Part shown: positions 6,906 through 38,259 of the stretch, one piece after another
Layout: each line of letters begins with the position of its first letter
How positions within the stretch are numbered: the stretch's first letter is position 1
NCBI GenBank assembly: GCA_963703315.1
Contig: OY969811.1
Coordinates: 4,501,175-4,565,174 of the forward strand
Source: an uncultured cyanobacterium
GTDB taxonomy: Bacteria > Cyanobacteriota > Cyanobacteriia > Pseudanabaenales > Pseudanabaenaceae
Length of the DNA stretch: 64,000 nt
Reading direction: 5' to 3'
The notes under the pieces: model-generated
What the model saw: only the letters and a program-made list of their open reading frames with translations
The model's database searches: none
Told to the model about the DNA's origin: nothing
Position numbers and translations under genes: made by a program

Positions 6906-7112
6906 AGATAAAAGCTTAAATGATTGCGGGTAAATGAGCTTGTAGTCAACTTTAGAGCATTTTTGATGTCTTGGAAAATTAGCGATCGCCACTTTTATGC
7001 CCCAAAAGCTACACACACTAACTCTTTTCGGCTTTAATAGGGATATTGCGATCGCAAAAAATTTTCACAACATCATCACAAACTTATTAATTAACCATTA
7101 AGTAACTTAATT

Positions 7113-7520
7113 ATGGCTGCTACTTTAAAAGATTTTTTAGAAGAATGTCACACTCTCGGCTTAGTCCGCCTGATCGTCACCAGTGATGCGGGTGTGCTGG
7201 AAGCAAGGGTAAATATCGAGAAGCTATTTTACGCGGAACTCCCCAAGGGCAAGTATGCGAATATGCATTCCGAACACATCGAGTTTCACCTAAACATGGA
7301 CAAAATTACCGATGTCCGCTTTGAAACCGCCGAAGCCAAACGCGGCAATTTCACCACCTACGCCGTCCGTTTCCTCGATGCCAATGACAAGCCCCAAATG
7401 AGTGCTTTCCTACAATGGGGTAAACCAGGGGAATATGCTGAAGGTCAAGTCGAAGCATGGGCTGCCCTCAAAGACAAGTACGGCGAAACTTGGAAGCCTG
7501 AGCCTGTTGAGAGTATATAA
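7113..7520 (+). CDS. ChuX/HutX family heme-binding-like protein
   Basis: 135 aa; GLVRLIVTSDAGVLE, YANMH..EFHLNMDKI..VRF pattern recalled from cyanobacterial ChuX/HutX-like proteins. Confidence 0.65.
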   Translation: MAATLKDFLEECHTLGLVRLIVTSDAGVLEARVNIEKLFYAELPKGKYANMHSEHIEFHLNMDKITDVRFETAEAKRGNFTTYAVRFLDANDKPQMSAFLQWGKPGEYAEGQVEAWAALKDKYGETWKPEPVESI

Positions 7521-7567
7521 ATATTTTTGAGATGATTGGTAAAAATACCCAGAGCTATTAAATTCTC

Positions 7568-8869
7568 ATGAAAATACTAAGGGAAATAAGTCGTGGTGGT
7601 TTTGGTCGAGTTGAGCTAGTTGAATTAGATACAAGTAGTATTGTTGCTAGAAAAGTATTTGATCCTGTTCCTAGTATTTTAGACGCATCTGAACTACCAA
7701 AGTTGAAAAAGCGATTTCAAAGAGAAGTCAAAGTCCAAAAGTCACTAAGTAGTGATTATTTTATGTCAGTTCTTGATGCTGATCTTGATGCTGAAACCCC
7801 TTGGTTTACTATGCCACTTGCAGATCGAAACCTTTCGGAAGAACTAGAGGAATCTCGTAAAAATGGTAATATCCCTCTAGAAGCATTGTCAGACATTCTA
7901 AATGCGCTAGAAGAACTTCATTCACTCGGCTATGTTCATCGCGATCTTAAGCCTCAAAACATCCTTTTTCATGAAAATCGTTGGAAGTTATCAGATTTTG
8001 GTTTAGTACTTCCTGTTTCAGGTGCTACTACCAAATTGACATCTATTGATTCATCTTGGGGAACTATGGGCTACTGTGCTCCAGAACAGGCTGAAGACTT
8101 TCGTAATGCTACACCCAGCGTAGATATTTATGCTTTTGGGTGCATACTACATGATCTATTTGCAGGATTTCCTCGTGTACCTTATCAACGTTATACAATA
8201 CAACATCCTGTAGGCATGATAATTGAAAAATGTACAGAGATAGAACCCAAAAAGCGATTTAAAAATATTACTTCACTACGCGGTACACTTCTCAAGCTAT
8301 TATCAGAATCGCAAAGTCTTACTCCTAGCCCTAGTGCTACAGAATGGGAAGGAAAACTGCAAAATCTATCTAATTGGAATATTCAACAATTAGAAGATTT
8401 TGCAAGATTTATGAAATCAACTCAAGATGAATCTGATTTGTGGGTTGTATGTCGGGCAATTGATGAAGAAGTTTTGCGTACTCTCTGCTCAATAGATAGA
8501 GAACTTTGGCAATTAATAGCTCTAGGATATTGTGATTGGTCACATGGCTCATTTAACTTCGACTACTGCGATGTGATTATCAGGAGATTGGAAGTGATTT
8601 TTGAGTTAGGCAATCTTGATGTCAAATCATCTGCTGCTATAGCAAGTGCCACTTTAGGGTGGTCTCATCATCGCTGGTTTGTCATGGGAAAAGTTCTATT
8701 TATGCTGGGTGCAAATTTAGATAATTTGGTAGCACAGCGAATTGCAATAGAAATAAGTGTCGAAGAAGTTTACAAACAATTTATTTCTTGTGCAGAGTTT
8801 CTCAAACGAAGTGTCAATGATTACCACCCTCAAATTGCTGAAGTTTTGATTGAGTATCAAAAAAAATAG
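7568..8869 (+). CDS. Hanks-type Ser/Thr protein kinase with an unknown helical C-terminal domain
   Basis: GGFGRV glycine loop, VHRDLKPQNIL, LSDFGL, GTMGYCAPEQ, DIYAFG; AT-rich and no HIP1 seen, suggesting foreign origin. Confidence 0.88.
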   Translation: MKILREISRGGFGRVELVELDTSSIVARKVFDPVPSILDASELPKLKKRFQREVKVQKSLSSDYFMSVLDADLDAETPWFTMPLADRNLSEELEESRKNGNIPLEALSDILNALEELHSLGYVHRDLKPQNILFHENRWKLSDFGLVLPVSGATTKLTSIDSSWGTMGYCAPEQAEDFRNATPSVDIYAFGCILHDLFAGFPRVPYQRYTIQHPVGMIIEKCTEIEPKKRFKNITSLRGTLLKLLSESQSLTPSPSATEWEGKLQNLSNWNIQQLEDFARFMKSTQDESDLWVVCRAIDEEVLRTLCSIDRELWQLIALGYCDWSHGSFNFDYCDVIIRRLEVIFELGNLDVKSSAAIASATLGWSHHRWFVMGKVLFMLGANLDNLVAQRIAIEISVEEVYKQFISCAEFLKRSVNDYHPQIAEVLIEYQKK

Positions 8870-8928
8870 TTGTCTTCTAGTTGCATTTCAGTAAAACATC
8901 TTAAATCCTTAAAAGATTAAGATACCAA

Positions 8929-9045
8929 TTTGATTTTTGTGGAGTAGCGATCATGATGTTTTGGGTGTTGAGGAGGCGATCTCTGTTTGATTTTCATGAA
9001 GTGGCGATCGCGATTTTGGGTGTTGAGGGGGCGATCGCTGTTTGA
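8929..9045 (+). repeat. HIP1-anchored junction repeat (A/B units)
   Basis: HIP1 or HIP1-like octamers at 8947, 8976, 9004, 9031, separated by alternating TGTTTGATTTT... and GATTTTGGGTGTTGAGG spacers. Confidence 0.85.
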
Positions 9046-9063
9046 ATATTGTAAAATCAAATA

Positions 9064-9297
9064 ATGGGTAAGAAAGAAAAACTACTTGAACTCCTAAAAA
9101 ACAGTCCCAACAATGTGACGTTTGGCGATATTCGTAAACTTTTAGAGCTAGAAGGTTTTGACTTGGATAGAATTACAGGTAGTCATCATATTTTCAAAAG
9201 AGATGAAGTAGTTCTAGTCATCCCAGTCCACAACAACCGAGTCAAGTCTGTATATGTTAAAAGAGTTGTAGAACTTATTGAAGGAGAACAATCATGA
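9064..9297 (+). CDS. hicA: HicA family toxin (copy 1, intact)
   Basis: GSHHIFKR...IPVH motif, 77 aa, overlaps hicB by ATGA. Confidence 0.88.
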   Translation: MGKKEKLLELLKNSPNNVTFGDIRKLLELEGFDLDRITGSHHIFKRDEVVLVIPVHNNRVKSVYVKRVVELIEGEQS

Positions 9298-9521
9298 AAT
9301 ATCCAATAGTGATTTATCCATGTGAAGAAGGTGGTTTTGTAGCTGAAATTCCTGCTTTAAAAGGATGTTTAGCTCAAGGTGAAACCCTAGAAGAAACCTT
9401 GCAAGAGTTAATTACAGTAAGAACTTTGTGGCTAGAGACAGCCCAAAAGCATGGTCAAAAACTTCCAGATGAAAGTAAGGCGATCGCTAGAGTAAAAGCA
9501 TTAAGTGCGATCGCTGTTTGA
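9294..9521 (+). CDS. hicB: HicB family antitoxin (copy 1)
   Basis: EEGGFVAEIPALKGCLAQGETLEE motif; stop codon lies inside the junction repeat. Confidence 0.9.
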   Translation: MKYPIVIYPCEEGGFVAEIPALKGCLAQGETLEETLQELITVRTLWLETAQKHGQKLPDESKAIARVKALSAIAV

Positions 9522-9570
9522 TTTTTGTGAAGTAGCGATCGCGATTTTGGGTGTTGAGGGGGCGGGCTGT
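9507..9570 (+). repeat. HIP1-anchored junction repeat
   Basis: GCGATCGCTGTTTGATTTTTGTGAAGTA-GCGATCGCGATTTTGGGTGTTGAGGGG. Confidence 0.88.
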
Positions 9571-9630
9571 GTTAACAAAGTGACTCAATTGTTATAATCA
9601 TTTCTACAACATGATTAAGTTCTAATCCTA

Positions 9631-9846
9631 ATGTCAATAACCCTAGAAGAAAGAGTCGCAATCCTAGAAGCTGAAATATCCCTGATTAAGAACAAAGTGG
9701 AAAGTCCAACTGTCACAGTAAAACCTTGGTGGGAGCAAATCACGGGAACATTTGCTGACAGCCCAGACTATGACAAAGCCATGCAACTAGGCAAAAAATA
9801 CCGTGAGTCATTGCGTAAGACATCAACAAAGTCCCGCAAAAAATAG
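9631..9846 (+). CDS. Putative antitoxin of the VapC module
   Basis: 71 aa; LEERVAILEAE...PWWEQITGTFAD pattern; abuts the PIN gene. Confidence 0.7.
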   Translation: MSITLEERVAILEAEISLIKNKVESPTVTVKPWWEQITGTFADSPDYDKAMQLGKKYRESLRKTSTKSRKK

Positions 9847-10167
9847 ATGTACATACTCGATACAGACCATCTCAGCGTATTAGATCGTGGTGGGACTACT
9901 GCTCAGCGTCTTCTTACTCGATTAGCAAAAGTCAATCCTAATCAAGTCTCAGCAACCATCATCAGCTACGAAGAACAGACAAGAGGGTGGTTAAGCCACA
10001 TTTCCAAAGCACGCAATCTTGAAGCGCAAGTTGAAATTTACAAACAACTTAAAAGACAAATTAATAATTACTGCACTATTCCAATAATTGATTTTGATAT
10101 AGAAGCCGCAAATGAATTCCAACGAATCAGAAAGTTATACCCTCGCCTCGGCACAATGGACTTAAAA

Positions 10168-11883
10168 CCCACATTCCGCTCGTAATGGAAGAAAAAAAAC
10201 AATTACGAAACAGGAGCAGGGAGCAAATAGTAGCGTTGGCAGGAGGGAGAAAAGAAATTCAAAATGTGAATCCGAAGAGGAGACAAATTAACAACTTGAG
10301 TGAGTCCCTGAAAAGAAACTAAATGAACCGCCATAAAACATTGAAAAATCCAACGCAAAGTTGGCGAATTAGTGGGTTTACCCAATTGATTAGGAATAGT
10401 ATCTTGAGCGATGGCTAAGGCAAGTCTGAGTTGACGTTGGGCTAAATTATAAACGAGCAAGCACAGTGCCATAATCATGCCCAAAGCCTCAATGCGTTTA
10501 GCAGACTTGAGAAAAACACTCGAAGTAAAAAACAAAGGATCTTTGAGGAAACGAAAACCACGCTCAGTGCTCTGCTGAGCCTTGTATTCCCGTAAAGCAT
10601 CATCAGCCGTGAATTGTAAGGAATCAAGAATATTCGTGGCTAAAATAAACCTGCCACAACGCTGTTGCTGAGCCAAGATTTCTGAGTCTATAGGAATCAC
10701 CGTTGCAGTAATCCGATAACTAATGCTGGTGGGTATAGCATCAGGTTGTGGCTTACCCCGTTTCGCATAATGTGGTTTTTCTACTGCCTGAATATGGTCG
10801 AGTTGATGCCATTTCATCTTGGTTGATAATTTTTCAGCAGCAGCGATCGCGTCAGCAGCACAGGCAAAATCTTGTCCCGCCAAAGTGTGTAAATCTTGAT
10901 GACATTTTTGCTGGACTTGCTCAAGCTTTTTGTCTAACTTTTTGATGTCTGATTTACGTCTTGCTTGGCTATCAACTAAAATCCATCTCTGTCTTACACC
11001 ACCATACTCACTCACAGTTTCGGCTGTCCTGTATCCCTTAAATTTACTTTCTTGTAGGTCAGTTGTGCTTGACACTAAGTCACTTGCAGTTTTGATGCTT
11101 AATGGCACTCGGGTTAGCCATTTTAGTCCTGTCATTGCTACCAGATTTTCTTCACTGTATAGCGCTGCATCGCCTACGCATATTCCCTCAAATGTCCACT
11201 GGGTTTTGAATTCTTGTAATAGTCCTGCAAATCTTGCTTTGTCGGCTTGATTTCCACTTACCACTTCCATCATTACGGGAATGTCTCCATCTCCTACACA
11301 GATCAGGTTCATCATAAATTGCTTCAGGTCGGGGCGATGGTCGCGTGAATATCCGTGTGTGATTTCGATACTCCCTTCTTCCTCTCTGCCATATTCCCCA
11401 TCTACGTGAAATGAGGTTGAGTCTATATGTCCTGTTTCTACCTTGACATCGTATTTCGCTACTGCTTTCAGGCTGATTCCTAAAAATGTCTCACTCAGTC
11501 CTGCTTCATGTAAGTCATCCAGTACTTTACCGATGCGGTCATCATTGATTTGTTCGGCTGTTATCCCTTCCCCCAATAAGTGCTCGGTTGGTTTTCCTTC
11601 AAAGAATTTACCAAACATATACAGGGGTGCTGATACAAATCCTAATCCATTCAGGAGCATGGCTTTGACAATTACTCCTGCACTTACTTTTTCTCTTGAG
11701 CTTCTCCCGATTATCGTGTTTATTTCTTCCACGATTCCCATCTCGTCGATGATTCCTGCCACGATCCCTAGATGGTCTAGGTTCGTTACTTTCATCTCTG
11801 TATTAATACCTGCCTCCTCTTTTTGCTCTTGTGCCTTACCTTTAGTTAATTATTTTACCCTTCCATTACGAGCGGAATGTGGG
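10168..11883 (-). mobile_element. IS1634-family insertion sequence, 1716 bp
   Basis: Perfect 24-bp terminal IRs CCCACATTCCGCTCGTAATGGAAG (10168-10191 / 11860-11883); 6-bp target duplication TTAAAA (10162-10167 / 11884-11889). Confidence 0.9.
10203..11795 (-). CDS. IS1634 family DDE transposase
   Basis: LDHLGIVAGIIDE N-terminus, HIDSTSFHVDG, GYSRDHRPDLKQ, YKAQQSTERGFRFLKDP; uninterrupted 530 aa. Confidence 0.9.
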   Translation of the reverse strand: MKVTNLDHLGIVAGIIDEMGIVEEINTIIGRSSREKVSAGVIVKAMLLNGLGFVSAPLYMFGKFFEGKPTEHLLGEGITAEQINDDRIGKVLDDLHEAGLSETFLGISLKAVAKYDVKVETGHIDSTSFHVDGEYGREEEGSIEITHGYSRDHRPDLKQFMMNLICVGDGDIPVMMEVVSGNQADKARFAGLLQEFKTQWTFEGICVGDAALYSEENLVAMTGLKWLTRVPLSIKTASDLVSSTTDLQESKFKGYRTAETVSEYGGVRQRWILVDSQARRKSDIKKLDKKLEQVQQKCHQDLHTLAGQDFACAADAIAAAEKLSTKMKWHQLDHIQAVEKPHYAKRGKPQPDAIPTSISYRITATVIPIDSEILAQQQRCGRFILATNILDSLQFTADDALREYKAQQSTERGFRFLKDPLFFTSSVFLKSAKRIEALGMIMALCLLVYNLAQRQLRLALAIAQDTIPNQLGKPTNSPTLRWIFQCFMAVHLVSFQGLTQVVNLSPLRIHILNFFSPSCQRYYLLPAPVS

Positions 11884-11992
11884 TTAAAAATTGCAGCGAT
11901 CGCCATTGTTAACAATGCGATCGTGTTAACCAGAAACACTTCTGATTTTGGGCAAATTGCAAACTTACAAATAGAAGATTGGACACAGTAAA

Positions 11993-12028
11993 TTGATCGC
12001 TGTTTGATTTTTGTGGAATGGCGAGCAT
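11993..12028 (+). repeat. HIP1-anchored junction repeat
   Basis: TTGATCGCTGTTTGATTTTTGTGGAATG-GCGAGC, 1 nt after the vapC stop. Confidence 0.8.
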
Positions 12029-12103
12029 TTGGCAAACGGCGTGCTAAAAGTTGCTTATTGGTTATAAACTCATTGGCTATAATAATTTGTATACGCTAAA
12101 AGC

Positions 12104-12379
12104 ATGAAATTTGAATGGGACGCAAATAAACAACAACAAAATCAACAAAAGCATAAGATTTCCTTTGAAGAAGCAACAACCGTTTGGACTGATCCATTAG
12201 CTTTAATTGCTCCTGATCCAACTCATTCAATAACAGAACAAAGAGAATGGATTATTGGACAATCATACGAAAGTCGTATATTAGTAGTTGTTTTCACAAT
12301 GAGAGAAGAGATAATTAGAATTATCAGTGTTAGACCTGCCAATAAATCGGAAAGAAAAAAGTATGTCGAATCAACCTGA
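12104..12379 (+). CDS. BrnT family toxin
   Basis: MKFEWDANK...KHKISFEEA...IRIISVR.A...ER motif. Confidence 0.88.
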   Translation: MKFEWDANKQQQNQQKHKISFEEATTVWTDPLALIAPDPTHSITEQREWIIGQSYESRILVVVFTMREEIIRIISVRPANKSERKKYVEST

Positions 12380-12632
12380 ATTTCCTTTTGCTAATGCCAG
12401 AAGAATTAGTGAATCAGAAGTAATAGCTGCCGAGCAAGCTATTAAACAACAATTTGGAATTAATCTCACACAGCATAAAGATTCAACTAAAAATGAAACA
12501 GAAAATTATCAATCAATTTCTATTCAGCTAGATCCTAAAATAATTGCTTGGGCAAAAGCTGAAGCTACAAAAAAAGGAGTTAAATATCAAGCAATCATTA
12601 ATGAAGTACTTCTCAAGGCGATCGCTTTTTGA
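12363..12632 (+). CDS. BrnA family antitoxin
   Basis: ISIQLDPKIIAW.K......YQAIINEVL RHH-type motif; start ATG 12363; stop lies inside the junction repeat. Confidence 0.82.
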   Translation: MSNQPEFPFANARRISESEVIAAEQAIKQQFGINLTQHKDSTKNETENYQSISIQLDPKIIAWAKAEATKKGVKYQAIINEVLLKAIAF

Positions 12633-12653
12633 TTTTGATGAAGGGGCGATCTC
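12618..12653 (+). repeat. HIP1-anchored junction repeat
   Basis: GCGATCGCTTTTTGATTTTGATGAAGGG-GCGATCTC. Confidence 0.8.
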
Positions 12654-12710
12654 TTTACCTCATGTTAGGATTTAACAAAGTAAATATACTTGTACACAAT
12701 TAATTCTCTT

Positions 12711-12932
12711 ATGAACACCCTAGTAGAGATTAAAACAGCGATCGCTAGATTGTCTGATGACGAAACATCAGCATTATTATCGTGGCTACAAGAACGCTCA
12801 GAAGATGACTGGGATAAACAAATAAAGAAAGACTCTGAGCTGGGTAAATTAGACAAAATTATCCAACGAACAAAAGCCCATATCGCCGCCAATCGCGTCA
12901 AGAAACTGGATGAAGTCATTAACAACTCCTGA
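12711..12932 (+). CDS. Putative antitoxin
   Basis: EIKTAIARLS...WDKQIKKDSELGKLD pattern; overlaps the downstream RelE/ParE-like toxin. Confidence 0.7.
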   Translation: MNTLVEIKTAIARLSDDETSALLSWLQERSEDDWDKQIKKDSELGKLDKIIQRTKAHIAANRVKKLDEVINNS

Positions 12933-13173
12933 TTTTTGGGAGGCTTACGTAGCTTTGCCGCCATCCATCAAAGCCCAAGCCAAAAAAACTTATCAAATCT
13001 GGCTAAGCGATCGCTTTTATCCATCCCTACATTTCAAAAAAGTCAATCAAAATCTATGGTCTATTCGCATCAATAGAGAATATCGAGCTTTAGCCTTAAA
13101 AGAAGGAGATGATTATTACTGGTTTTGGATCGGTTTGCATGACGAATACGACAGATTAATTGATGAAAATTAA
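12910..13173 (+). CDS. RelE/ParE-superfamily toxin
   Basis: FWEAYVALP, PSLHFKKV, WSIRINREYRALA, WFWIGLHDEYD. Confidence 0.8.
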   Translation: MKSLTTPDFWEAYVALPPSIKAQAKKTYQIWLSDRFYPSLHFKKVNQNLWSIRINREYRALALKEGDDYYWFWIGLHDEYDRLIDEN

Positions 13174-13176
13174 TAT

Positions 13177-13253
13177 TGAGGAGGCGATCGCTGTTTGATT
13201 TTTGTATGGAGTGGCGATAGTGATTTTAGGTGTTGAGGTGCGATCGCTGTTTG
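13177..13253 (+). repeat. HIP1-anchored junction repeat (A-B-A)
   Basis: Octamers at 13184, 13214, 13240 with A and B spacers. Confidence 0.85.
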
Positions 13254-13272
13254 AATATTGTAAAATCAAATA

Positions 13273-13501
13273 ATAGGGTAAGAAAGAAAAACTACTTGAA
13301 CTCCTAAAAAACAGTCCCAACAACGTGACGTTTGGCGATATTCGTAAACTTTTAGAGCTAGAAGGTTTTGACTTGGATAGAATTACAGGTAGTCATCATA
13401 TTTTCAAAAGAGATGAAGTAGTTCTAGTCATCCCAGTCCACAACAACCGAGTCAAGTCTGTATATGTTAAAAGAGTCGTAGAACTCATAGAAGGAGAATA
13501 A
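13273..13501 (+). pseudogene. hicA: HicA toxin copy 2 with start codon destroyed
   Basis: Near-identical to 9064-9297, but ATG became ATAG (1-nt insertion), placing TAG in frame before GKKEK; the rest is open to TAA 13499-13501. Confidence 0.85.
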
Positions 13502-13503
13502 TT

Positions 13504-13731
13504 ATGAGATATCCAATAGTAATTTATCCCTGTGAAGAAGGTGGTTTTGTTGCTGAAATTCCAGCTTTAAAAGGATGTTTAGCTCAAGGTGAAACCCTAG
13601 AAGAAACTTTGCAAGAGTTAATTACAGTAAGAACTTTGTGGCTAGAGACAGCCCAAAAGCATGGTCAAAAACTTCCAGATGAAAGTAAGGCGATCGCTAG
13701 AGTAAAAGCATTAAGTGCGATCGCTGTTTGA
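13504..13731 (+). CDS. hicB: HicB family antitoxin (copy 2)
   Basis: Protein differs from copy 1 only at residue 2 (R vs K). Confidence 0.9.
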   Translation: MRYPIVIYPCEEGGFVAEIPALKGCLAQGETLEETLQELITVRTLWLETAQKHGQKLPDESKAIARVKALSAIAV

Positions 13732-13840
13732 TTTTTGTGAAGTAGCGATCGCGATGCTTTTTGTTGTTGATGGGGCGATCGTGCTATTTGGGTTGAGATT
13801 AGGGGCGATCGCTAGTTGATTTTGGTGGAGTGGCGATTAT
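13717..13840 (+). repeat. HIP1-anchored junction repeat (extended)
   Basis: Octamers at 13717, 13745, 13775, 13805, 13833. Confidence 0.85.
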
Positions 13841-13868
13841 TATGTTTATTGTAGTTAGGTAGACCCAA

Positions 13869-14126
13869 ATGCCAACAGTTTTATATGTAAAGGGCTGGCG
13901 ATTTTTCTTTTATTCAGATGAAGGAAACGAGCCAATTCATATTCATGTTCAGAAAGGAGACAGCGAATGTAAATATTGGCTAGACATTGATCTATACGAA
14001 ATCCGTGAGGCTTACTCCTATGGAATGTCATCACGCGATACGAGAGAAGTTAAGAAAATAATTTTACAAAACTTTGATGAAATAGTAGAAGAATGGCAAG
14101 CATTCAGGAGTCAGCAAAATGGATAA
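13869..14126 (+). CDS. DUF4160 family protein (TA module component)
   Basis: GWRFFFYSDEGNEPIHIHV motif. Confidence 0.85.
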   Translation: MPTVLYVKGWRFFFYSDEGNEPIHIHVQKGDSECKYWLDIDLYEIREAYSYGMSSRDTREVKKIILQNFDEIVEEWQAFRSQQNG

Positions 14127-14364
14127 GCAATACAACGTATCGAATATAGAATTTAGTGGCGAATGGATAATTCTATCGGTTAATGAAGAAACCTATCAAA
14201 TCCCAATTGTTCAAGCTTCTAAAAAACTTGCTCAAGCAACAGATATTGAACGTAAGATGTACCGCATTTCTCCATCAGGTTATGGGATTCATTGGTATGC
14301 GATCGATGAAGATTTAACAACTAAAGGACTTATTAAGTTAGCCACAGTTGCCCAAACAGCTTAA
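14119..14364 (+). CDS. DUF2442 family protein (partner of DUF4160)
   Basis: L..AT..ER....ISPSGYGIHWYAIDEDL motif. Confidence 0.85.
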   Translation: MDKQYNVSNIEFSGEWIILSVNEETYQIPIVQASKKLAQATDIERKMYRISPSGYGIHWYAIDEDLTTKGLIKLATVAQTA

Positions 14365-14371
14365 ACAATGG

Positions 14372-14405
14372 GCGATCGCTGTTTGATTTTTGTGAAGTAG
14401 CGATA
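14372..14405 (+). repeat. HIP1-anchored junction repeat
   Basis: GCGATCGCTGTTTGATTTTTGTGAAGTA-GCGAT, 7 nt after the stop. Confidence 0.85.
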
Positions 14406-14470
14406 TTACACCCATTAAATTTGTTTTTTGCTAGACTACATACCAGATACTCATCACTTTGAGGTTATTT

Positions 14471-14698
14471 ATGAGATCAATAGAGCTACTTACGAAAGAA
14501 TTATTATCTCTCCCTAGTATTTCTAGAGCGCTATTAGCAGAAAAACTAGTCGAAAGCCTAGAATTTGACACCGATCCAACTGTTCAGGCAACATGGACAG
14601 CCGAAGCAAAAAAAAGACGTGATGCAGTCCGTGATAGTTCTGTTCAAACAATCGAAGGAGAAGATGCTCTAGCTCAGGTAAGACGGTTACTTGCGTAA
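14471..14698 (+). CDS. Addiction module antitoxin (TIGR02574-like)
   Basis: LSLP...RALLAEKLVESL...W..EAKKR pattern; GAGG upstream of ATG 14471. Confidence 0.8.
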   Translation: MRSIELLTKELLSLPSISRALLAEKLVESLEFDTDPTVQATWTAEAKKRRDAVRDSSVQTIEGEDALAQVRRLLA

Positions 14699-14988
14699 TG
14701 AAGTATGTATTTCATCCCGAAGCACTTGCTGAATATTCTGATGCAGTTCAATATTATGCTGAACAGAGAACAGAAATTGCCCAAGCATTTATCAATGCAA
14801 TTGAAGATGCAATTTTTCGGATTAAGGAATCTCCTAATCGTTACGCCGCAATTGATGAAGATATTCGACGATGCATGACACGAAAATTCCCCTACGGAAT
14901 CCTCTATACGATTGAGGAAGATTATATTCTGATCTTAGCCGTGATGCATTGCAGTCGAGAAGTTGGATATTGGAAAAATAGGAAGTAA
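14698..14988 (+). CDS. ParE/RelE family toxin
   Basis: FHPEALAE, RRCMTRKFPYGILY, ILAVMHCSR..GYW. Confidence 0.85.
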   Translation: MKYVFHPEALAEYSDAVQYYAEQRTEIAQAFINAIEDAIFRIKESPNRYAAIDEDIRRCMTRKFPYGILYTIEEDYILILAVMHCSREVGYWKNRK

Positions 14989-15034
14989 GGCGATCGCTGA
15001 TTACAAAATTTACATTGATATAACCCTTCGCATT

Positions 15035-15055
15035 TAACGTGCCACGTTATATGAT
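15035..15055 (+). promoter_or_regulatory. Palindromic operator adjoining a putative -10 box of higBA
   Basis: TAACGT-GCC-ACGTTA directly followed by TATGAT, about 30 nt upstream of higB. Confidence 0.55.
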
Positions 15056-15083
15056 ACGAATATAAACTTACTATTCCTTAGTC

Positions 15084-15365
15084 GTGATCCGAAGCTTTAA
15101 GGATAAAGAAACTCAAAAAATCTTTGAGAGACTGCGATCGCGTAAATTGCCATCAGAAATTCAACAAGTAGCCTTACGAAAATTGCGTATGCTAAATCAG
15201 TCACCCACTCTTCAAGAACTTCGTATTCCACCAGCAAATCGATTAGAACGACTAAGTGGCGATCGTGAAGGTCAATATAGCATTCGGATTAACAATCAAT
15301 GGCGTATTTGCTTTGAATGGCAAAATGATGACGCTTTCAATGTGGAAATTGTTGATTATCATTGA
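15084..15365 (+). CDS. higB: HigB (plasmid maintenance killer) toxin
   Basis: MIRSFKDKET, LRIPPANRLE.L.GDR.GQYSIRINNQWRICF, VEIVDYH; GTG start. Confidence 0.92.
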   Translation: MIRSFKDKETQKIFERLRSRKLPSEIQQVALRKLRMLNQSPTLQELRIPPANRLERLSGDREGQYSIRINNQWRICFEWQNDDAFNVEIVDYH

Positions 15366-15374
15366 GGAATCAAA

Positions 15375-15671
15375 ATGAACGAAGATAAACTTAATCCAAT
15401 TCATCCTGGGGAAGTTCTTTTAGAAGAATTTCTTAAACCGATGAACTTGAGTCAAAATCAACTAGCGTTAGCTCTTCGAGTTCCCGCCCGACGTATTAAC
15501 GAAATCATTCACGGTAAACGACGAATCACCACAGATACGGCAATTCGCTTAGCATTCTATTTCAATATGTCCCCCAGATTTTGGCTTGGATTACAAATGG
15601 ATTACGATTTAGATATAGCTGAAGATGAAGTTGGAGAAAAACTAAAAATGGAAGTAGCAGTTTTTAGCTAA
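15375..15671 (+). CDS. higA: HigA family antitoxin (HTH)
   Basis: PIHPGEVLLEEFLKP, RINEIIHGKRRIT, FWLGLQMDYDL. Confidence 0.92.
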   Translation: MNEDKLNPIHPGEVLLEEFLKPMNLSQNQLALALRVPARRINEIIHGKRRITTDTAIRLAFYFNMSPRFWLGLQMDYDLDIAEDEVGEKLKMEVAVFS

Positions 15672-15672
15672 A

Positions 15673-15738
15673 GCGATCGCTGTTTGATTTTTTGAAGTGG
15701 CGATCGCCCAGCATTGCACTAATTGTGAGGGCGATCGC
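15673..15738 (+). repeat. HIP1-anchored junction repeat closing the first array
   Basis: Octamers at 15673, 15700, 15731; first spacer TGTTTGATTTTTTGAAGTG. Confidence 0.8.
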
Positions 15739-15760
15739 TTGTGAGAGATAGAACTTGTGA

Positions 15761-18028
<2,268 letters not shown>

Positions 18029-18086
18029 TTAAATGATACATGGCTTAGTTAATCTGATTCGTATCGGTTTTATCCAGAAAATAGCG

Positions 18087-18192
18087 ATCGAGCTTCACCT
18101 AAAATATAGACAAAATTACCGATGTTCGCTTTGAAACCAATTCCACTACCACGCGATCCGCTCCAACGATGCCGATGATAAGCCCCAAATGA
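18087..18192 (+). pseudogene. Decayed internal fragment of the ChuX/HutX-like gene
   Basis: Aligns to 7278-7401 (TTCACCTAAA...GACAAAATTACCGATGT.CGCTTTGAAACC...AAGCCCCAAATGA) with an 18-nt deletion and small indels. Confidence 0.8.
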
Positions 18193-18302
18193 TTCTGTAA
18201 TAAGGTAAGATAACCCACTGAGAGTCTGTAGGAAATATACTATGTTTTTAAGCTATATTTAAATATTAGATAAGTCTATAAAGAAAATAACCAGTTATAT
18301 AT

Positions 18303-19562
18303 ATGGTAAAAGCTGTTATGTCCAATCTAAAACTTTTTGAGGAAGAAAAAAAGGATTTAACTTTCTTTGAAGAAAAAGAAGATACAGATAGTGATTCTGA
18401 TGATCTCCAAAAACTATTAGAAGAGATTGCCGAAATCCTCGTGACTGGGACTGATTGGACAACAAGAACTTTACTAGATCAACTTGTGAGGGAAAATATT
18501 CAATTAAATCCAAGATTTCAAAGACGTGATGCGTGGAATATCGTACGAAAAAGTAGATTTATAGAATCAATTATTCTTGGATTTCCTATCCCACACATAG
18601 TTTTAGCATCTAATCAAAAAGAACGAGGAAAATTCGTTGTTCTTGATGGTAAGCAACGCCTACTTACGATTCTTCAATTTTACGGTAAAAGCACGGCGAC
18701 AAAAAATAATAATTTCTCTTTGAGAGGATTAGAATTCAGGAAAGATCTAGATGGTCTTTCGTATAAAGATTTAGAAAATAATCCAGACTATGCTTCTATA
18801 GTTGCACCTCTTGATAATCAGACTATTCGCACTATCTTGATCCGAAATTGGCATACTGAATCTTTTCTCTATAAAATCTTTTTACGTCTTAATGTTGAAA
18901 GTACGCCTTTATCACCTCAAGAACTTAGACAGGCACTTCATCCAGGTGATTTTGTCAACTTTTTAGACGATCAATCGGTTGCTAGTCAATCGTTGAGGCG
19001 AATTTTTAAGTCAAAAGAGCCTGATTTTAGGATGAGAGACAATGAATTGCTTATGAGGTTTATGGGATTTCATTATTTCTTACCTGAGTATCGTGGCACA
19101 TTAAAAGCTTTTCTAGATATGACTTGTAAAAGGCTTAATGAAGAATGGGAAAATAAAGCAGACGATATTAAGGAAGCCGCTAATCAGTTTGAATACGCTA
19201 TAGAAGTAACTATTGAGATATTTGGAGAAAGACATTTCTCCCGTCTTTGGCTAGATAAATCACAAACATATCGCAGTCAATTTAATAGAGCGATTTTAGA
19301 TGCTATGGTTTTCTATTTTTCTGATCCTATTATTAGAAATGTAGCAGTAACTAGAAAAGAATCAATAAATACCGCATTCAAGGAACTATGTTCTTCTACT
19401 GGAAATGGATTTAGAGAATCTGTCGAGGGTAATACAAAAAATATTGGTGAAACCTTTACTCGCTTATCTTTATGGGGGAAAACTCTTAGAGATATATTAG
19501 ATATAGATTTCAATGTACCTGATTTAATTGAAAACCGCATAGTCTTCACCAGTTTACATTAG
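18303..19562 (+). CDS. DUF262 (GmrSD N-terminal-like, ParB/Srx fold) protein
   Basis: PRFQRRDAW, SRFIESIILGFPIP, VLDGKQRLLTI, FLRLNVESTPLSPQELR. Confidence 0.88.
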   Translation: MVKAVMSNLKLFEEEKKDLTFFEEKEDTDSDSDDLQKLLEEIAEILVTGTDWTTRTLLDQLVRENIQLNPRFQRRDAWNIVRKSRFIESIILGFPIPHIVLASNQKERGKFVVLDGKQRLLTILQFYGKSTATKNNNFSLRGLEFRKDLDGLSYKDLENNPDYASIVAPLDNQTIRTILIRNWHTESFLYKIFLRLNVESTPLSPQELRQALHPGDFVNFLDDQSVASQSLRRIFKSKEPDFRMRDNELLMRFMGFHYFLPEYRGTLKAFLDMTCKRLNEEWENKADDIKEAANQFEYAIEVTIEIFGERHFSRLWLDKSQTYRSQFNRAILDAMVFYFSDPIIRNVAVTRKESINTAFKELCSSTGNGFRESVEGNTKNIGETFTRLSLWGKTLRDILDIDFNVPDLIENRIVFTSLH

Positions 19563-19576
19563 TTTCTATTTAGAAT

Positions 19577-20170
19577 ATGTCGATTTCAAGAAGGTTTCGT
19601 GATTTAGAGAGAGAGCTAAGTAGACTAAAAAAGCAATTTCTACCTAAAATTAGTCCTACTGGCTCATATTCTGATAGAAAGCTGTCCTTAACTATTGCTT
19701 ATAGAGTTTTAGCTCATGCTGAGATTGAATCCTATCTTGAGAATAGAGCTGAGGAAGTAGTTCTCTATGCAAAGAGAAAATGGGATGTTGATGGCAATTC
19801 TAGTCGCGCATTGGTTGCTATTGTGGCTTTTGCAGAAAACAAGCGAACTGCATCTGCGCCATTCTTAAATGATAAAATAAGATTTGCAGTTGATATTTTT
19901 CAGACTGCAATCCGAGAAAATCATGGAATAAAAGAAAAGAATATTCTGAATTTGATGTTGCCAATAGGTATAGATAATAATGATTTAGATACTGTTTTCT
20001 TGGCTAATATGAATACGTTTGGAGAAGATAGAGGTCTTGTAGCGCATTCATCAGCAACACTATATAGAGTAACAAATTTACCAGATCCTGCTACTGAGTT
20101 AAATAGAATACAGCAAATTACTAATGACCTTAGAAATTTAGATCAGCTAATAAGTGCTTTGATGGAATAA
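19577..20170 (+). CDS. HEPN-domain protein (RiboL-PSP / MAE_28990-like)
   Basis: N-terminal AHAEIESYLE and Rx4H motif RGLVAH; operonic with DUF262. Confidence 0.75.
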   Translation: MSISRRFRDLERELSRLKKQFLPKISPTGSYSDRKLSLTIAYRVLAHAEIESYLENRAEEVVLYAKRKWDVDGNSSRALVAIVAFAENKRTASAPFLNDKIRFAVDIFQTAIRENHGIKEKNILNLMLPIGIDNNDLDTVFLANMNTFGEDRGLVAHSSATLYRVTNLPDPATELNRIQQITNDLRNLDQLISALME

Positions 20171-20178
20171 AGAATGTA

Positions 20179-20327
20179 GTGATCGCTGTTTGATTTTTGT
20201 AGAGAGGTGATCGTGATGTTTTTGGGTGTTGAGAGGGCGATCACTGTTTCATTTTTGTGGAATGGCGATCGTGATATTGAAGTGTTGAGGGGGCGATCGC
20301 TGTTTGATTTTTGATTGGGGCGATCAT
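20179..20327 (+). repeat. HIP1-anchored junction repeat (A-B-A-B-A)
   Basis: Octamers at 20179, 20207, 20237, 20265, 20293, 20320 with alternating spacers. Confidence 0.88.
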
Positions 20328-20362
20328 GTTAATCTATAAAATATAAATTAGGGAACAAAGAT

Positions 20363-20554
20363 ATGACTGCTGTAGTACAAGAGCTTCTAAATACCTTTGA
20401 TAATCTCACATACGCAGAAAGACTAGACTTATTATCAGAAATTCTAAGACGAACAGTTGACTTAGAATTTGAACCATTATCTGATGAAGAACTAACATTG
20501 AACGCCGAAGACCTGTTTCTAACGTTGGACGAAGAAGAGTTAGCCGATGAGTAG
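20363..20554 (+). CDS. Putative antitoxin of the MazF module
   Basis: Acidic 63 aa protein overlapping the PemK/MazF gene. Confidence 0.7.
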   Translation: MTAVVQELLNTFDNLTYAERLDLLSEILRRTVDLEFEPLSDEELTLNAEDLFLTLDEEELADE

Positions 20555-20882
20555 CCCAGAACGTGGAGAAGTTTGGCTAGTCGATCTTGGCTATGTCGCA
20601 AAAGTCAGACCATGCTTAGTTATTAGTATCCCAGCCCTAGACAGCGATCGCGCATTAGTAACCCTAGTTCCACATACAACGAGTTTGCGCGATTGCAGAT
20701 TTGAAGTAAAAGTCAAAGCTAAATTTTTGCGAGAAGGCGCATTTGACGTACAAAATCTCATCACAATCCCTCATGCCAAACTTTTACGCAAACTAGGAGA
20801 GCTAACATCAGAGCAAATGGAAGACTTAGAAGATGTCTTACTCGTATGGTTAGGATTTGAATCTGAAAAAGACGAAGACTAA
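20547..20882 (+). CDS. PemK/MazF family toxin
   Basis: RGEVWLVDLG...KVRPCLVIS, VPHTTS, KLGELT. Confidence 0.88.
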   Translation: MSSPERGEVWLVDLGYVAKVRPCLVISIPALDSDRALVTLVPHTTSLRDCRFEVKVKAKFLREGAFDVQNLITIPHAKLLRKLGELTSEQMEDLEDVLLVWLGFESEKDED

Positions 20883-20903
20883 GCATAGAAAACTTTGAAA
20901 AAG

Positions 20904-20972
20904 GCGATCGCTGTTTGATTTTTGTGGAGAGGCGAGCGTGATTTTTGGGGTTGAGATGGGCAATCGCTGTTT
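20904..20972 (+). repeat. HIP1-anchored junction repeat (A-B-A)
   Basis: Octamers at 20904, 20932, 20960. Confidence 0.82.
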
Positions 20973-20992
20973 AAACATTGTAAAATCAAGTT

Positions 20993-21167
20993 GTGGGTAA
21001 GAAAAAATAAACTACTTGAACTCCTAAAAAATAGCCCCACGTGACGTTTGCAGATATTCGTAAACTTTTAGAGCTAGAAAGTTTTGACTTGGATAGAATT
21101 ACAGGCAGTCACCATATTTTCAAAAGAGATGAAGTAGTTTTCGTCATCCCAGTTCATAACAACCGAG
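20993..21167 (+). pseudogene. hicA: HicA toxin copy 3, degraded and truncated, no hicB
   Basis: Aligns to 9064-9241; GTG start, TAA at codon 6, 4-nt deletion; similarity ends after CATAACAACCGAG. Confidence 0.85.
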
Positions 21168-21361
21168 CAGCAATTCTCATTATGGAAAATTAACGGCGTT
21201 GCACACACTCATAATGATCAAGTAAAAATAGGAAAGGATTTCTGATTTTTGCGTTTGAGGTAAAAAAGTAGTAACCGAATCGAAATCTGCAACATTAATC
21301 ATCACTAACTCCCTTTTACTTTTATTGGTAACATAGATTAAGAAATATATTGAAATAACTC

Positions 21362-22569
<1,208 letters not shown>

Positions 22570-37089: not shown

Positions 37090-38259
37090 ATGTTTGTAAT
37101 TCCTTTAGCATGGTTACAACTTACTTATCAAAAGGGGCGACTAGCGATCGCGATCGCAGGGATCATGTTTGCGGTAATTTTGATCGCCATGCAGTTAGGT
37201 TTTCAAGAAGCCCTGTTTAAAAGTGCCGTACTGTTACACCTTAACTTGCGTAGTGATTTAGTCCTGATTCATCCCAGCTCGAACAATTTACTCAATCTAA
37301 GACAATTTTCACGCCGCCGTTTACATCAAGCGGCTGGATTTACAGGGGTCAAATCGGTTTACCCAGTATATGTTGGTCTAGCTGTGTGGAATGCAACGGA
37401 GCTGGGCGTAAAGGAAGATATTTTAGCGATCGGCGTTTCCCCCCAATCCAATCCATTTCTATTTCCTAATATCAAACCAGATTTAGATAAAACTTTATTA
37501 CCTGATATTGTTCTGTTTGATCGTGGCTCAAGGGAAGATTTTTATGGCTCAGTGGCTGCTGAATATGAAGCAGCGATCGCTCAAGGTAAAATCCTCACCA
37601 AAGAAGTTTCTAACCGCGCCATTACGATCGGCGGAATATTTACGATGGGAGTATCTTTTGCGGCTAACGGCACATTGATTACCAGTGAGCAAAACTTCTT
37701 AAGAATTTTCCCCGATCGCCCCGTTGGAAATATTAGCTTAGGCTTAGTGCAATTAGAAAAAAGTGCAAATGCGATCGCTGTTCGTGATGCGATGCGATCG
37801 CAGTTAGACCAAGATATAAAGATATTGACTAGACAAGAATTTATTGATTTAGAGCTAAATTATTGGTCTGAAGCAACCCCAATCGGTTTTATCTTTGGCT
37901 TAGGTGTGACCATGGGCTTTATTGTTGGTGTCGTTATTGTCTACCAAGTTTTATATAAAGATGTGTCCGATCATCTAGCTGAATATGCCACCCTTAAGGC
38001 AATGGGCTACAGCAACTTTTATTTGTTTAGACTAGTTTTACAAGAATCCTTGCTGTTATCTCTATGTGGATTTGTGCCAGCCCTGTTAGTTTGTGCAATT
38101 CTTTATAATCTGACCCAAATTGCTACAGGTTTGTTAATGGAACTAAATAGTGATCGCATTGTGCAGTTATTTTTATTAACAATTTCAATGTGTGCTATTT
38201 CTGGCACTCTCTCTCTTCGCAAAGTCCAAACTGCCGATCCTGCGGAAATATTTGAATAA
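37090..38259 (+). CDS. DevC-type ABC exporter permease (FtsX-like)
   Basis: IPLAWLQL, MQLGFQ, VIVYQVLY.DV..HLAEYATLKAMG, ADPAEIF; start ATG 37090. Confidence 0.85.
   Translation: MFVIPLAWLQLTYQKGRLAIAIAGIMFAVILIAMQLGFQEALFKSAVLLHLNLRSDLVLIHPSSNNLLNLRQFSRRRLHQAAGFTGVKSVYPVYVGLAVWNATELGVKEDILAIGVSPQSNPFLFPNIKPDLDKTLLPDIVLFDRGSREDFYGSVAAEYEAAIAQGKILTKEVSNRAITIGGIFTMGVSFAANGTLITSEQNFLRIFPDRPVGNISLGLVQLEKSANAIAVRDAMRSQLDQDIKILTRQEFIDLELNYWSEATPIGFIFGLGVTMGFIVGVVIVYQVLYKDVSDHLAEYATLKAMGYSNFYLFRLVLQESLLLSLCGFVPALLVCAILYNLTQIATGLLMELNSDRIVQLFLLTISMCAISGTLSLRKVQTADPAEIFE

Follow-up and report, generated by a model that had tools for sequence, protein, structure and literature searches.

Arrays of gene cassettes have so far meant integrons, and by outcome the closest known system to the one described here is the sedentary chromosomal integron. 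Sedentary chromosomal integrons and clusters of attC sites lacking integron integrases (CALINs), for example the Vibrio cholerae superintegron with its V. cholerae repeats (VCR), likewise combine small cassettes, a lineage-typical repeat, variable content and a wealth of toxin-antitoxin (TA) modules, which in integron arrays are thought to stabilise the array (PMC13108822). By repeat architecture the closest known system is SDR5, one of the small dispersed repeats (SDRs) of Nostocaceae (Elhai et al. 2008 as cited in PMC4390886, PMC5861425 and PMC13756078). As described by Elhai 2015 (PMC4390886), SDR5 inserts within HIP1, a hyper-abundant cyanobacterial palindrome that has been linked to site-specific as well as illegitimate recombination and whose function is presented as still debated in PMC4390886, PMC5861425 and PMC13756078. 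When placed in homology arms, HIP1 is reported to raise integration in Synechococcus PCC 7002 by as much as 7-fold, and by over 100-fold if methylated (10.1101/2024.09.10.611283); the authors of that work, Kamoku and Nielsen 2024, liken HIP1 to Chi. Here we analyse a stretch of 64,000 nucleotides (nt) from an uncultured cyanobacterium of the genus Pseudanabaena (GCA_963703315.1, contig OY969811.1, positions 4,501,175 to 4,565,174), which we call the window and in which TA and defence genes lie between repeats anchored on HIP1. Our analysis suggests, with slightly better than even confidence, that the region consists of two adjoining members of a Pseudanabaena-wide set of repeat-jointed cassette arrays, which would be changed by host recombination without an integrase. 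A literature search (supplements excluded) found no published description of such TA arrays in Pseudanabaena or other cyanobacteria.

A previous reading of this DNA, made from the sequence alone, had proposed a 23-nt motif at the end of each gene unit. We searched for GCGATCGCTGTTTGATTTT with at most 3 mismatches on both strands of the whole window and obtained 17 matches, where 0.05 would be expected. On the + strand there are 15, spanning 8976-20922 and placed directly behind nine TA modules and three other units, with starts at 9507, 11993, 12618, 13184, 13717, 14372, 15673, 20179 and 20904 and extra tandem copies at 8976, 9031, 13240, 13805, 20237 and 20293. One match within the array lies on the - strand (12727), and the sole match outside it, at 37562, is weak (3 mismatches). 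The motif thus occurs at the starts given by the sequence-only reading, with 14990 in a reduced form that consists of HIP1 plus TG, but the true repeat is a composite unit of about 55-56 nt, often in tandem, rather than a 23-mer.

We call this unit REP. Its layout is [HIP1]TGTTTGATTTTTGTGRAGTR[HIP1 or near-HIP1]GATTTTGGGTGTTGAGGGG, with the consensus GGCGATCGC-TGTTTGAT-(about 12 nt)-GGCGATCG(C/T)-GATTTTGGGTGTTGAGGGG, the first module beginning with HIP1 + TGTTTGAT. In every sequence variant of the unit (below, its flavours) the half-unit spacers between HIP1 or HIP1-like sites measure 19-23 nt, and a 16-nt core, GCGATCGCTGTTTGAT, shows about 80-100% conservation at each position in all flavours and species, in contrast to its diverging flanks. 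Once perfect HIP1s are taken out, G+T makes up 74% of the + strand of REP but 50% of the region. The window contains 116 copies of HIP1 and the 4.57-Mb genome 8189 (1.79 per kb). Joints hold 0.15-3 tandem REP copies here and up to 9 in relatives. Rfam gave no match at E up to 0.1 in 7000-22500.

The genes, cassettes and joints are listed below from left to right with window coordinates, strand and basis (IS, insertion sequence; ORF, open reading frame; TRF, Tandem Repeats Finder); genomes and loci of relatives carry our labels G and L.

7568..8869, +: Ser/Thr protein kinase cassette, PD-T4-6/Stk2-like, GC 0.37, no HIP1 (Pfam, PADLOC)
8929..9052, +: REP joint, 2.1 tandem units of 55 nt, its end HIP1+TGTTTGA abutting hicAB (motif, TRF)
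9064..9521, +: hicA/hicB cassette, copy 1; the hicB stop is the TGA inside REP (Pfam)
9503..9561, +: REP joint, one unit, orthologous to the hicB-to-vapB joint of G016
9631..11991, +: vapB-like + PIN (VapC) cassette; PIN parts 9847-10161 and 11885-11991, split by an IS (orthologue)
10162..11884, -: IS with DUF4277 + DDE_Tnp_1 transposase (10203-11795) (Pfam)
11994..12050, +: REP joint, first HIP1 degenerate: TTGATCGC
12104..12632, +: brnT/brnA cassette; the brnA stop is the TGA inside REP (Pfam)
12615..12670, +: REP joint
12690..13173, +: small ORF of no known family + ParE_like toxin cassette (Pfam; orthologues L015, L018, L022, L043)
13180..13260, +: REP joint, 1.3 units, end HIP1+TGTTTGA before hicAB copy 2
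13325..13731, +: hicA/hicB cassette, copy 2, with REP on both sides (Pfam)
13713..13858, +: REP joint, two to three degenerate units
13869..14364, +: DUF4160/DUF2442 cassette (Pfam; orthologues L015, L044)
14370..14409, +: REP joint, first half-unit only
14459..14988, +: Unstab_antitox/ParE cassette (Pfam)
14990..14997, no strand: bare HIP1, the entire parE/higBA joint
15084..15671, +: higB/higA (HigB/HTH) cassette (Pfam)
15670..15738, +: REP joint beside the 3' end of the isocitrate dehydrogenase (IDH) gene; landing point of the hutX>REP metagenome joint
15761..17992, -: monomeric IDH, 743 amino acids (aa) (Pfam)
18303..20170, +: DUF262 (GmrSD_N; PADLOC NsnA-like) + RiboL-PSP HEPN cassette, GC 0.34, no HIP1
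20178..20338, +: REP joint, 2.3-3 tandem units of 56 nt (TRF)
20363..20882, +: small ORF of no known family + PemK/MazF cassette (Pfam; orthologues L023, L043, plasmid ABRG53f)
20900..20958, +: REP joint
21041..21193, +: hicA remnant, a third, decayed hicAB copy (Pfam)

The IDH gene splits the region into two arrays, 8929-15740 and 18303-21167, the latter stopping ahead of dapF (21362), and the DUF262+HEPN cassette has no REP on its IDH side. Much of what had been read from the letters holds: Pfam bears out the TA modules, the kinase, the DUF262+HEPN pair and the hicA remnant, and TRF recovers the HIP1-less repeat start at 8929, 60 nt past the kinase stop at 8869. The proposed VapC pair is right as to its PIN identity, since the intact 140-aa orthologue scores PIN at 25.6 bits, although the gene here is split by an IS and is recognisable as PIN only via that orthologue. 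The single array of repeat-ended units stands as to units and repeats, but the IS (10162-11884) and the IDH gene had been overlooked, so that there are two arrays.

The edges of the cassettes are closely tied to HIP1. At the 3' edge of every co-oriented cassette lies the first HIP1 of the unit, 0-22 nt past the stop, in keeping with the earlier description of a motif that overlaps the stop or starts within 22 nt of it, and the TGA inside REP serves as stop codon both of hicB and of brnA (for brnA in four species). The 5' edge falls at the first HIP1 for higBA and for hicAB, the latter after HIP1+TGTTTGA, and at the second HIP1 position for brnTA, ParE-like and PemK. Compared with a metagenome strain, the window has the 10-nt GCGATCGCTG in duplicate, with one copy on each side of the higBA unit; since in addition the parE/higBA joint is a bare HIP1, we take exchange here to have occurred on 8-10 nt of identity. 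The two full hicAB copies match each other from one REP to the next, a duplication of cassette size within the array, and the hicB-REP-vapB adjacency is found both here and in G016, with orthologous REPs that differ by few substitutions. Between REPs there is either no sequence or 0.45-1.9 kb of genes.

The cassettes of the window recur elsewhere in the genus. We compared 19 loci, the IDH neighbourhoods of 16 species and the hutX neighbourhoods of three, and found higBA, brnTA, unknown/ParE-like, DUF4160/DUF2442, unknown/PemK, vapBC, hicAB and Unstab/ParE in other orders, other subsets and other array sites, at 79-100% aa identity and with REP between them; DUF262+HEPN recurs too, more diverged (78%/52%). 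The higBA pair is present in 17 of 48 genus genomes and mostly adjoins IDH. For instance, G003 has the order IDH / higBA / REPx2 / ParE-like / REP / brnTA / REP, G023 has REPx5 / DUF4160/2442 / REP / ParE-like / REP, G017 has DUF262+HEPN / REPx9, and G007 has hutX / ... / ParE-like / REPx2 / PemK / REP / vapBC / higA / REP / Unstab/ParE / REP. The order brnTA, parE-like, DUF4160, higBA of the window contrasts with higBA, parE-like, brnTA in G003 and no strand is flipped; since order differs without a change of strand, inversion is no explanation. A given cassette type may sit in the IDH array of one species and in the hutX array of another, and in the window both arrays are fused around IDH.

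Metagenome strains tell a similar story. In Logan contigs from related populations (90-99% identity), with runs X4 and X6-X22 set aside for their small shares, a joint 14999>15696 connects the HIP1 at 14990 to the REP at 15673 with higBA absent, 14371>9507 places the vapBC cassette after DUF2442, 20945>14993 leads from REP into higBA, and 7510>15675 joins hutX to the REP beside IDH, the left array and the kinase being absent; a joint 18085>20906 was also found. In one metagenome population IDH is REP-bounded on both sides, and as it is found in 28 of 41 genus genomes, gene content identifies the monomeric IDH as accessory in the genus. One candidate within-strain joint, 9045>20290, the sole array joint in run X1, the likely source run, had to be rejected as a misplaced contig: it carries 36 letters of another array's flavour and one of its sides is 21 nt long.

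Aligning the window to the 19 loci yielded 79 internal homology end points, which we treat as break points. Within 60 nt of a REP lie 54 of the 79 (background 15.7%), and 28 fall inside a REP (background 6.0%). Judged by their sequence relationships, then, the units behave as gene cassettes. Content and order differ between species and between metagenome strains, and a scan of the genome bears out that the motif is not scattered; the units thus withstand the refuting tests set by the sequence-only reading.

Indeed, an iterated nhmmer profile (E<0.01) finds 88 REP matches in the genome, 73 of them in 12 multi-copy clusters, each of a single REP orientation, and 15 as solo copies. The clusters consist mostly of TA and defence genes, with the Pfam families DUF5615-PIN/DUF433, BrnT, DUF4926/DUF6883, YoeB, ParE/Phd, PemK and HicA and further MNT/HepT, TacA/GNAT, Uma2 and HNH. 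Several have genes opposite to the REP strand or on both strands, so that co-orientation of the units, as claimed earlier, is true of this array but not of others, where genes face either way. Among ParE, BrnT, PemK or PIN genes, 13 of 68 lie within 1 kb of a REP, compared with 1.3% of the genome; the family search overlooked the window's own parE, which makes these counts lower bounds.

Taken together, the counts in other genomes identify REP, as a sequence, as both genus-wide in Pseudanabaena and limited to that genus. A 19-mer (at most 1 mismatch) occurs in all 24 other genus genomes and gives single matches in 2 of 16 other-family genomes. The core GCGATCGCTGTTTGAT is found 7-24 times in each of 8 genus genomes; outside the genus it has 0-3 copies in 143 genomes of 79 genera, 22 of them with 1-3 and 121 with none. 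Of 72,556 plasmid records one contains REP, namely a Pseudanabaena sp. ABRG5-3 replicon of 110 kb (NZ_AP017566.1; L037) that carries an IDH gene and a PemK array; among 2.9 million viral contigs one has a single core match, and no REP was found in phage records. A phage or plasmid vehicle was accordingly discarded, the only plasmid being a Pseudanabaena replicon with the IDH locus.

The flavour of a REP belongs to its locus, and at IDH/hutX and acnB it stays the same from species to species. One flavour, TGTTTGATTTTTTGTGGAG...GCGATCGTGATTTTGGGTGTTGAGGGG, is common to the IDH and hutX arrays of 20 loci, arrays L001, L003 and L004 have ...GATGTGGAGAAATAGGCGATCGGGTTTGTGGGTGGTGAGGGG, and the array downstream of acnB has a third; it occupies the same locus in 5 of 13 relatives, with none of this genome's cassettes there. 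Of 18 homologous protein pairs that span arrays of different flavour in the genome, none is more than 53% identical, whereas the two arrays of the same flavour do share cassettes. These locus-specific flavours and the lack of cassette sharing between flavours favour homology-dependent host recombination over a site-specific recombinase.

How old is the cargo? Shared cassettes show 89-94% DNA identity against 86-91% for the adjacent IDH gene, and higBA is slightly more similar than the core gene (93.5-94.2% vs 89.3-90.2%). Since the cassettes are about as diverged as the core gene, most of them are old residents of the genus and not recent imports, and the idea that the system is accumulating cassettes finds no support. 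The coding regions of higBA and Unstab/ParE are about 73-74% identical to plasmid TA pairs of Synechocystis, Picosynechococcus and Calothrix; this resemblance is confined to the genes, with no REP included. Cassette G+C is 0.33-0.41, compared with 0.46-0.48 in flanking housekeeping genes. The absence of HIP1 from the kinase and DUF262+HEPN units suggests a later arrival of these two, whose PADLOC matches are PD-T4-6/Stk2 models for the kinase and NsnA (216 bits) for DUF262.

How do these arrays compare with described systems? Despite the similar outcome, every testable defining feature of an integron failed. The arrays have no IntI (the best TIGR02249 score genome-wide is 32 bits, the cut-off being 265), no attC hairpin and no R''/R' cores (RYYYAAC, GTTRRRY). 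As single-stranded DNA, REP shows only HIP1-HIP1 pairing, at -3.4 to -12.9 kcal/mol, and a proxy scan for attC core pairs found 3 against 2.9 expected, none at a joint. Joints have 0.15-9 repeats instead of one, flavour is tied to the locus and not to the cassette, at least 12 arrays sit at unrelated chromosomal sites instead of one platform, and the cassettes have their own upstream regions. Lacking an integrase, the arrays also offer no anchor for an attI site or a Pc promoter. An integron or CALIN is therefore ruled out by the missing IntI, the missing attC hairpin and core and the varying REP number per joint. The sequence-only reading had rightly seen neither attC nor integrase, but its integron-like logic does not hold, given REP numbers that run from a bare HIP1 to 9 and a flavour that belongs to the locus.

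Other systems resemble the arrays in part. The pdif (XerC/XerD) modules of Acinetobacter plasmids and the minimal mobile elements of Neisseria are also small accessory modules, often TA pairs, that are delimited by short conserved sites or by conserved flanks and exchanged without a recombinase gene of their own. The pdif sites are 28-bp dyads in alternating orientation, whereas REPs are direct within an array and have the 8-nt HIP1 as their only dyad; Neisseria elements depend on flanking genes that are conserved, whereas the joints here rest on an internal repeat. Like REP/REPIN-RAYT systems, the arrays involve short, multi-copy, lineage-specific intergenic repeats, but REPINs are inverted hairpin pairs and RAYT is flanked by the same repeat, while HIP1 REPs are direct, tandem and unlinked. 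CRISPR arrays have short unique spacers of similar size, in contrast to the empty or gene-filled intervals between REPs. SDR5, as its architecture is described, shares with REP a spacer of about 20 nt in or between HIP1 and is likewise very small, non-coding and cyanobacterial; unlike SDR5, REP lies outside Nostocaceae, is a composite two-module unit and is clustered at cassette joints, not dispersed. Finally, in published HIP1-linked recombination (Robinson et al. 1997 and Akiyama et al. 1998 via PMC4390886; Kamoku and Nielsen 2024) HIP1 is, as here, the point of exchange, but those cases as presented concern laboratory constructs and plasmids, and here we have natural recurrent joints, a longer conserved repeat and gene cassettes. 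What looks new is thus a cassette flux that is mediated by repeats, has its joint anchored on HIP1 and lacks an integrase.

How could such arrays change without an integrase? In the reading we favour, tandem, same-oriented, G/T-rich modules bracketed by HIP1 would form the joints, with small self-contained gene units between them, mostly TA pairs with their own promoter region and besides these the kinase, NsnA-like + HEPN and, in some strains, IDH. On a first tier, homologous exchange between REP and REP would delete, duplicate, re-order and swap whole cassettes, whether the partner REP lies in one and the same array, in another array of like flavour or on DNA acquired from relatives. Variable copy number, duplication, deletion and strand-preserving re-ordering (by duplication and then loss) are the products of unequal exchange between direct repeats. 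RecA prefers G/T-rich DNA, which would fit the composition of REP. On a second tier, events between HIP1 and HIP1 on 8-10 nt of identity would give the sharp edges and single-HIP1 joints, and would be the likely route by which new genes are first captured; we add this tier because the conserved core, the 8-10-nt exchanges and the first flanking by REP are unexplained by homology alone. Since HIP1 raises integration in published work, HIP1-rich DNA is a plausible hot spot. The dominance of TA pairs could arise because units that punish their own loss would persist in a deletion-prone array, and REP may double as a weak terminator for co-oriented cassettes only.

Several observations weigh against this proposal. 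Plain homologous recombination leaves the conserved core GCGATCGCTGTTTGAT unexplained, which hints at a sequence-specific factor, and 8-10 nt of identity is too short for ordinary RecA exchange. Most TA loci lie outside REP arrays, with 55 of the 68 counted toxin genes away from REPs. The location of break points in the repeat, as put forward by the sequence-only reading, is true of the 54 near REP and not of the other 25 of 79, which have no REP nearby: 16 cluster about 90 nt upstream of IDH, 3 each lie at the hutX stop and at the IS edge, and the last three are at single sites; at the IDH-upstream boundary neither REP nor a common HIP1 was found. All joints come from other species or from the metagenome contigs, and no insertion, deletion or excision circle was seen within one strain, contigs being blind to rare events. 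Old arrays with differential loss could account for much of the pattern. As to a possible link between REP orientation and the direction of replication, the cumulative GC skew shows neither a clear minimum nor a clear maximum, and origin and terminus could not be placed from it.

We now consider other explanations. The one that survives best, though we hold it unlikely, is that REP half-units are tiny mobile elements of the SDR5 type (about 20 nt) that enter HIP1 and have piled up in dispensable intergenic DNA, shuffling being secondary. The 19-23-nt spacer bracketed by HIP1 matches the architecture of SDR5 in HIP1 as given in PMC4390886 and PMC5861425, tandem number ranges from 1 to at least 20 half-units with empty runs (L012, L016, L059) included, and the fifteen solo copies also fit. 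However, the concentration of 73 of 88 copies in 12 arrays of one orientation each is not dispersal, and flavours that are locus-specific and inherited at orthologous joints fit local duplication and not transposition. No relative with a plain HIP1 at a collinear site was found in a comparison that covered joints and few solo sites, no transposase is linked to REP, the sole Y1 transposase gene having a different repeat, and Xu et al. 2018 (PMC5861425), where they treat the distribution of SDRs, report no SDR-like repeat outside Nostocaceae.

Alternatively, a dedicated enzyme acting in trans could read the core GCGATCGCTGTTTGAT and cut and rejoin cassettes, as a true integron analogue with a new site. 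We consider this improbable, a little more so than mobile half-units, even though the constancy of the core against diverging flanks, the cassette edges at HIP1 positions, the higBA-sized difference bracketed by the duplicated GCGATCGCTG and the uniform REP orientation regardless of gene direction would all be expected of it. Genome-wide there is no candidate gene: IntI and resolvases are missing, no recombinase is shared by the flanks, and a TetR-integrase-like gene does not track REP. In addition, joints differ in how many sites they hold, left edges use either of two HIP1 positions in the unit, and flavours do not share cassettes despite the common core. To the broader idea that REP arrays are a dedicated, integrase-free capture platform, a counterpart of the integron in which the core would be a HIP1-directed, possibly methylation-dependent site of cutting and rejoining, we give similarly little credence; if true, HIP1, whose function has been open for about 30 years, would gain a concrete role as a universal cassette joint.

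Least probable of all is that REP is chiefly a terminator or insulator between autoregulated TA operons and the location of break points incidental, since, although the + strand RNA of the first half-unit is predicted to form a hairpin (HIP1-HIP1 with a G-U extension, -23.3 kcal/mol, z -2.5) followed by GAUUUUGGG, REP begins 0-22 nt past stops in this array and a HIP1-bracketed bidirectional terminator exists elsewhere in the genome, a consensus scan finds no terminator at any REP (4 in the region vs 8.8 expected), genes of other arrays lie on the opposite or both strands with a transcript that is C/A-rich and has no U tract, there is nothing for long empty tandem runs to terminate, and locus-specific flavours and break points go unexplained.

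Under host recombination at REP and HIP1, these would be compact, TA-rich, re-orderable gene-cassette arrays with neither integrase nor attC. Their natural, recurrent HIP1 joints make HIP1-promoted recombination in vivo testable within one genus. More generally, the arrays mark where accessory genes of Pseudanabaena enter and exit, among them candidate anti-phage genes, a kinase and an enzyme of the tricarboxylic acid cycle, and they could serve as ready-made landing pads for engineering.

A number of further observations concern individual elements. The IS at 10162-11884 is a recent insertion: in metagenome contigs X2 and X5 it is missing at the vapC site (joint 10161>11884). Its word depth in run X1 is about 20x that of the flanks, and a second copy lies at L038:83-1675. 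In the second hicA (window 13277-13501) the ATG is lost, ATAATAGGG replacing ATAATGGG, and only a later GTG start is possible, giving 58 aa and not 77. In L043 (G007:C23), at 8982-9320, higA directly follows the vapC stop without REP or higB, the product of a deletion outside the repeat that fused two cassettes. One of the gene-free tandem runs lies in L059 (G017:C45), where positions 1106-1775 downstream of acnB form an 'empty' array of about 700 nt with at least 20 REP half-units; other empty runs are found in L012 and L016. About 3.5 Mb from the window the genome has a further GmrSD_N gene, as shown by Pfam, whose flank looks by eye like the L001/L003 flavour, although the REP profile gave it no score. 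A solo REP at G000:C1:149,346 (L008:2330-2400) lies between ylmH and uvrB, which are more than 300 kb apart in all four relatives that have both genes, and is thus at a synteny break; the region downstream of ylmH in G054 has no REP.

The search for recombinases brought up a few genes that could be set aside. PF00589 has 3 matches, which amount to 2 tyrosine-recombinase-like genes, both far from arrays; the genome has no serine recombinase or resolvase, and the array flanks have neither a gene nor a recombinase in common. One protein of 415 aa, TetR_N fused to a weak tyrosine-recombinase-like domain (G000:C1:4,367,585-4,368,832; L035:4086-5333), is kept in 23 of 24 genus genomes. Its gene stands beside a solo REP and was rejected as a candidate, being present in 11 of 16 other-family genomes without REP arrays and not found in the REP-rich G017. 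A RAYT as driver was rejected likewise, the single Y1_Tnp gene being flanked by its own, different hairpin repeat. This RAYT-like gene (176 aa; G000:C1:348,500-349,600; L038:3077-4020) lies between 156-nt direct repeats that hold hairpin pairs with 16-nt arms and 33-35-nt loops, and the arm occurs about 72 times genome-wide (at most 2 mismatches), mostly in pairs 49 nt apart, which is REPIN-like and unrelated to the HIP1 REP.

Finally, a 'solo REP' that the first profile had placed between pnp and ndhF (E 0.02) disappeared with the iterated profile and was dropped as a bidirectional terminator instead. At this site, between the two convergent genes (G000:C1:1,035,840; L029:1540-1600), there is a perfect HIP1-bracketed hairpin with A6 and T7 flanks. 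It is missing in G006 and G049, and in G002 and G054 it has compensatory changes; from its sequence it is likely a bidirectional terminator.

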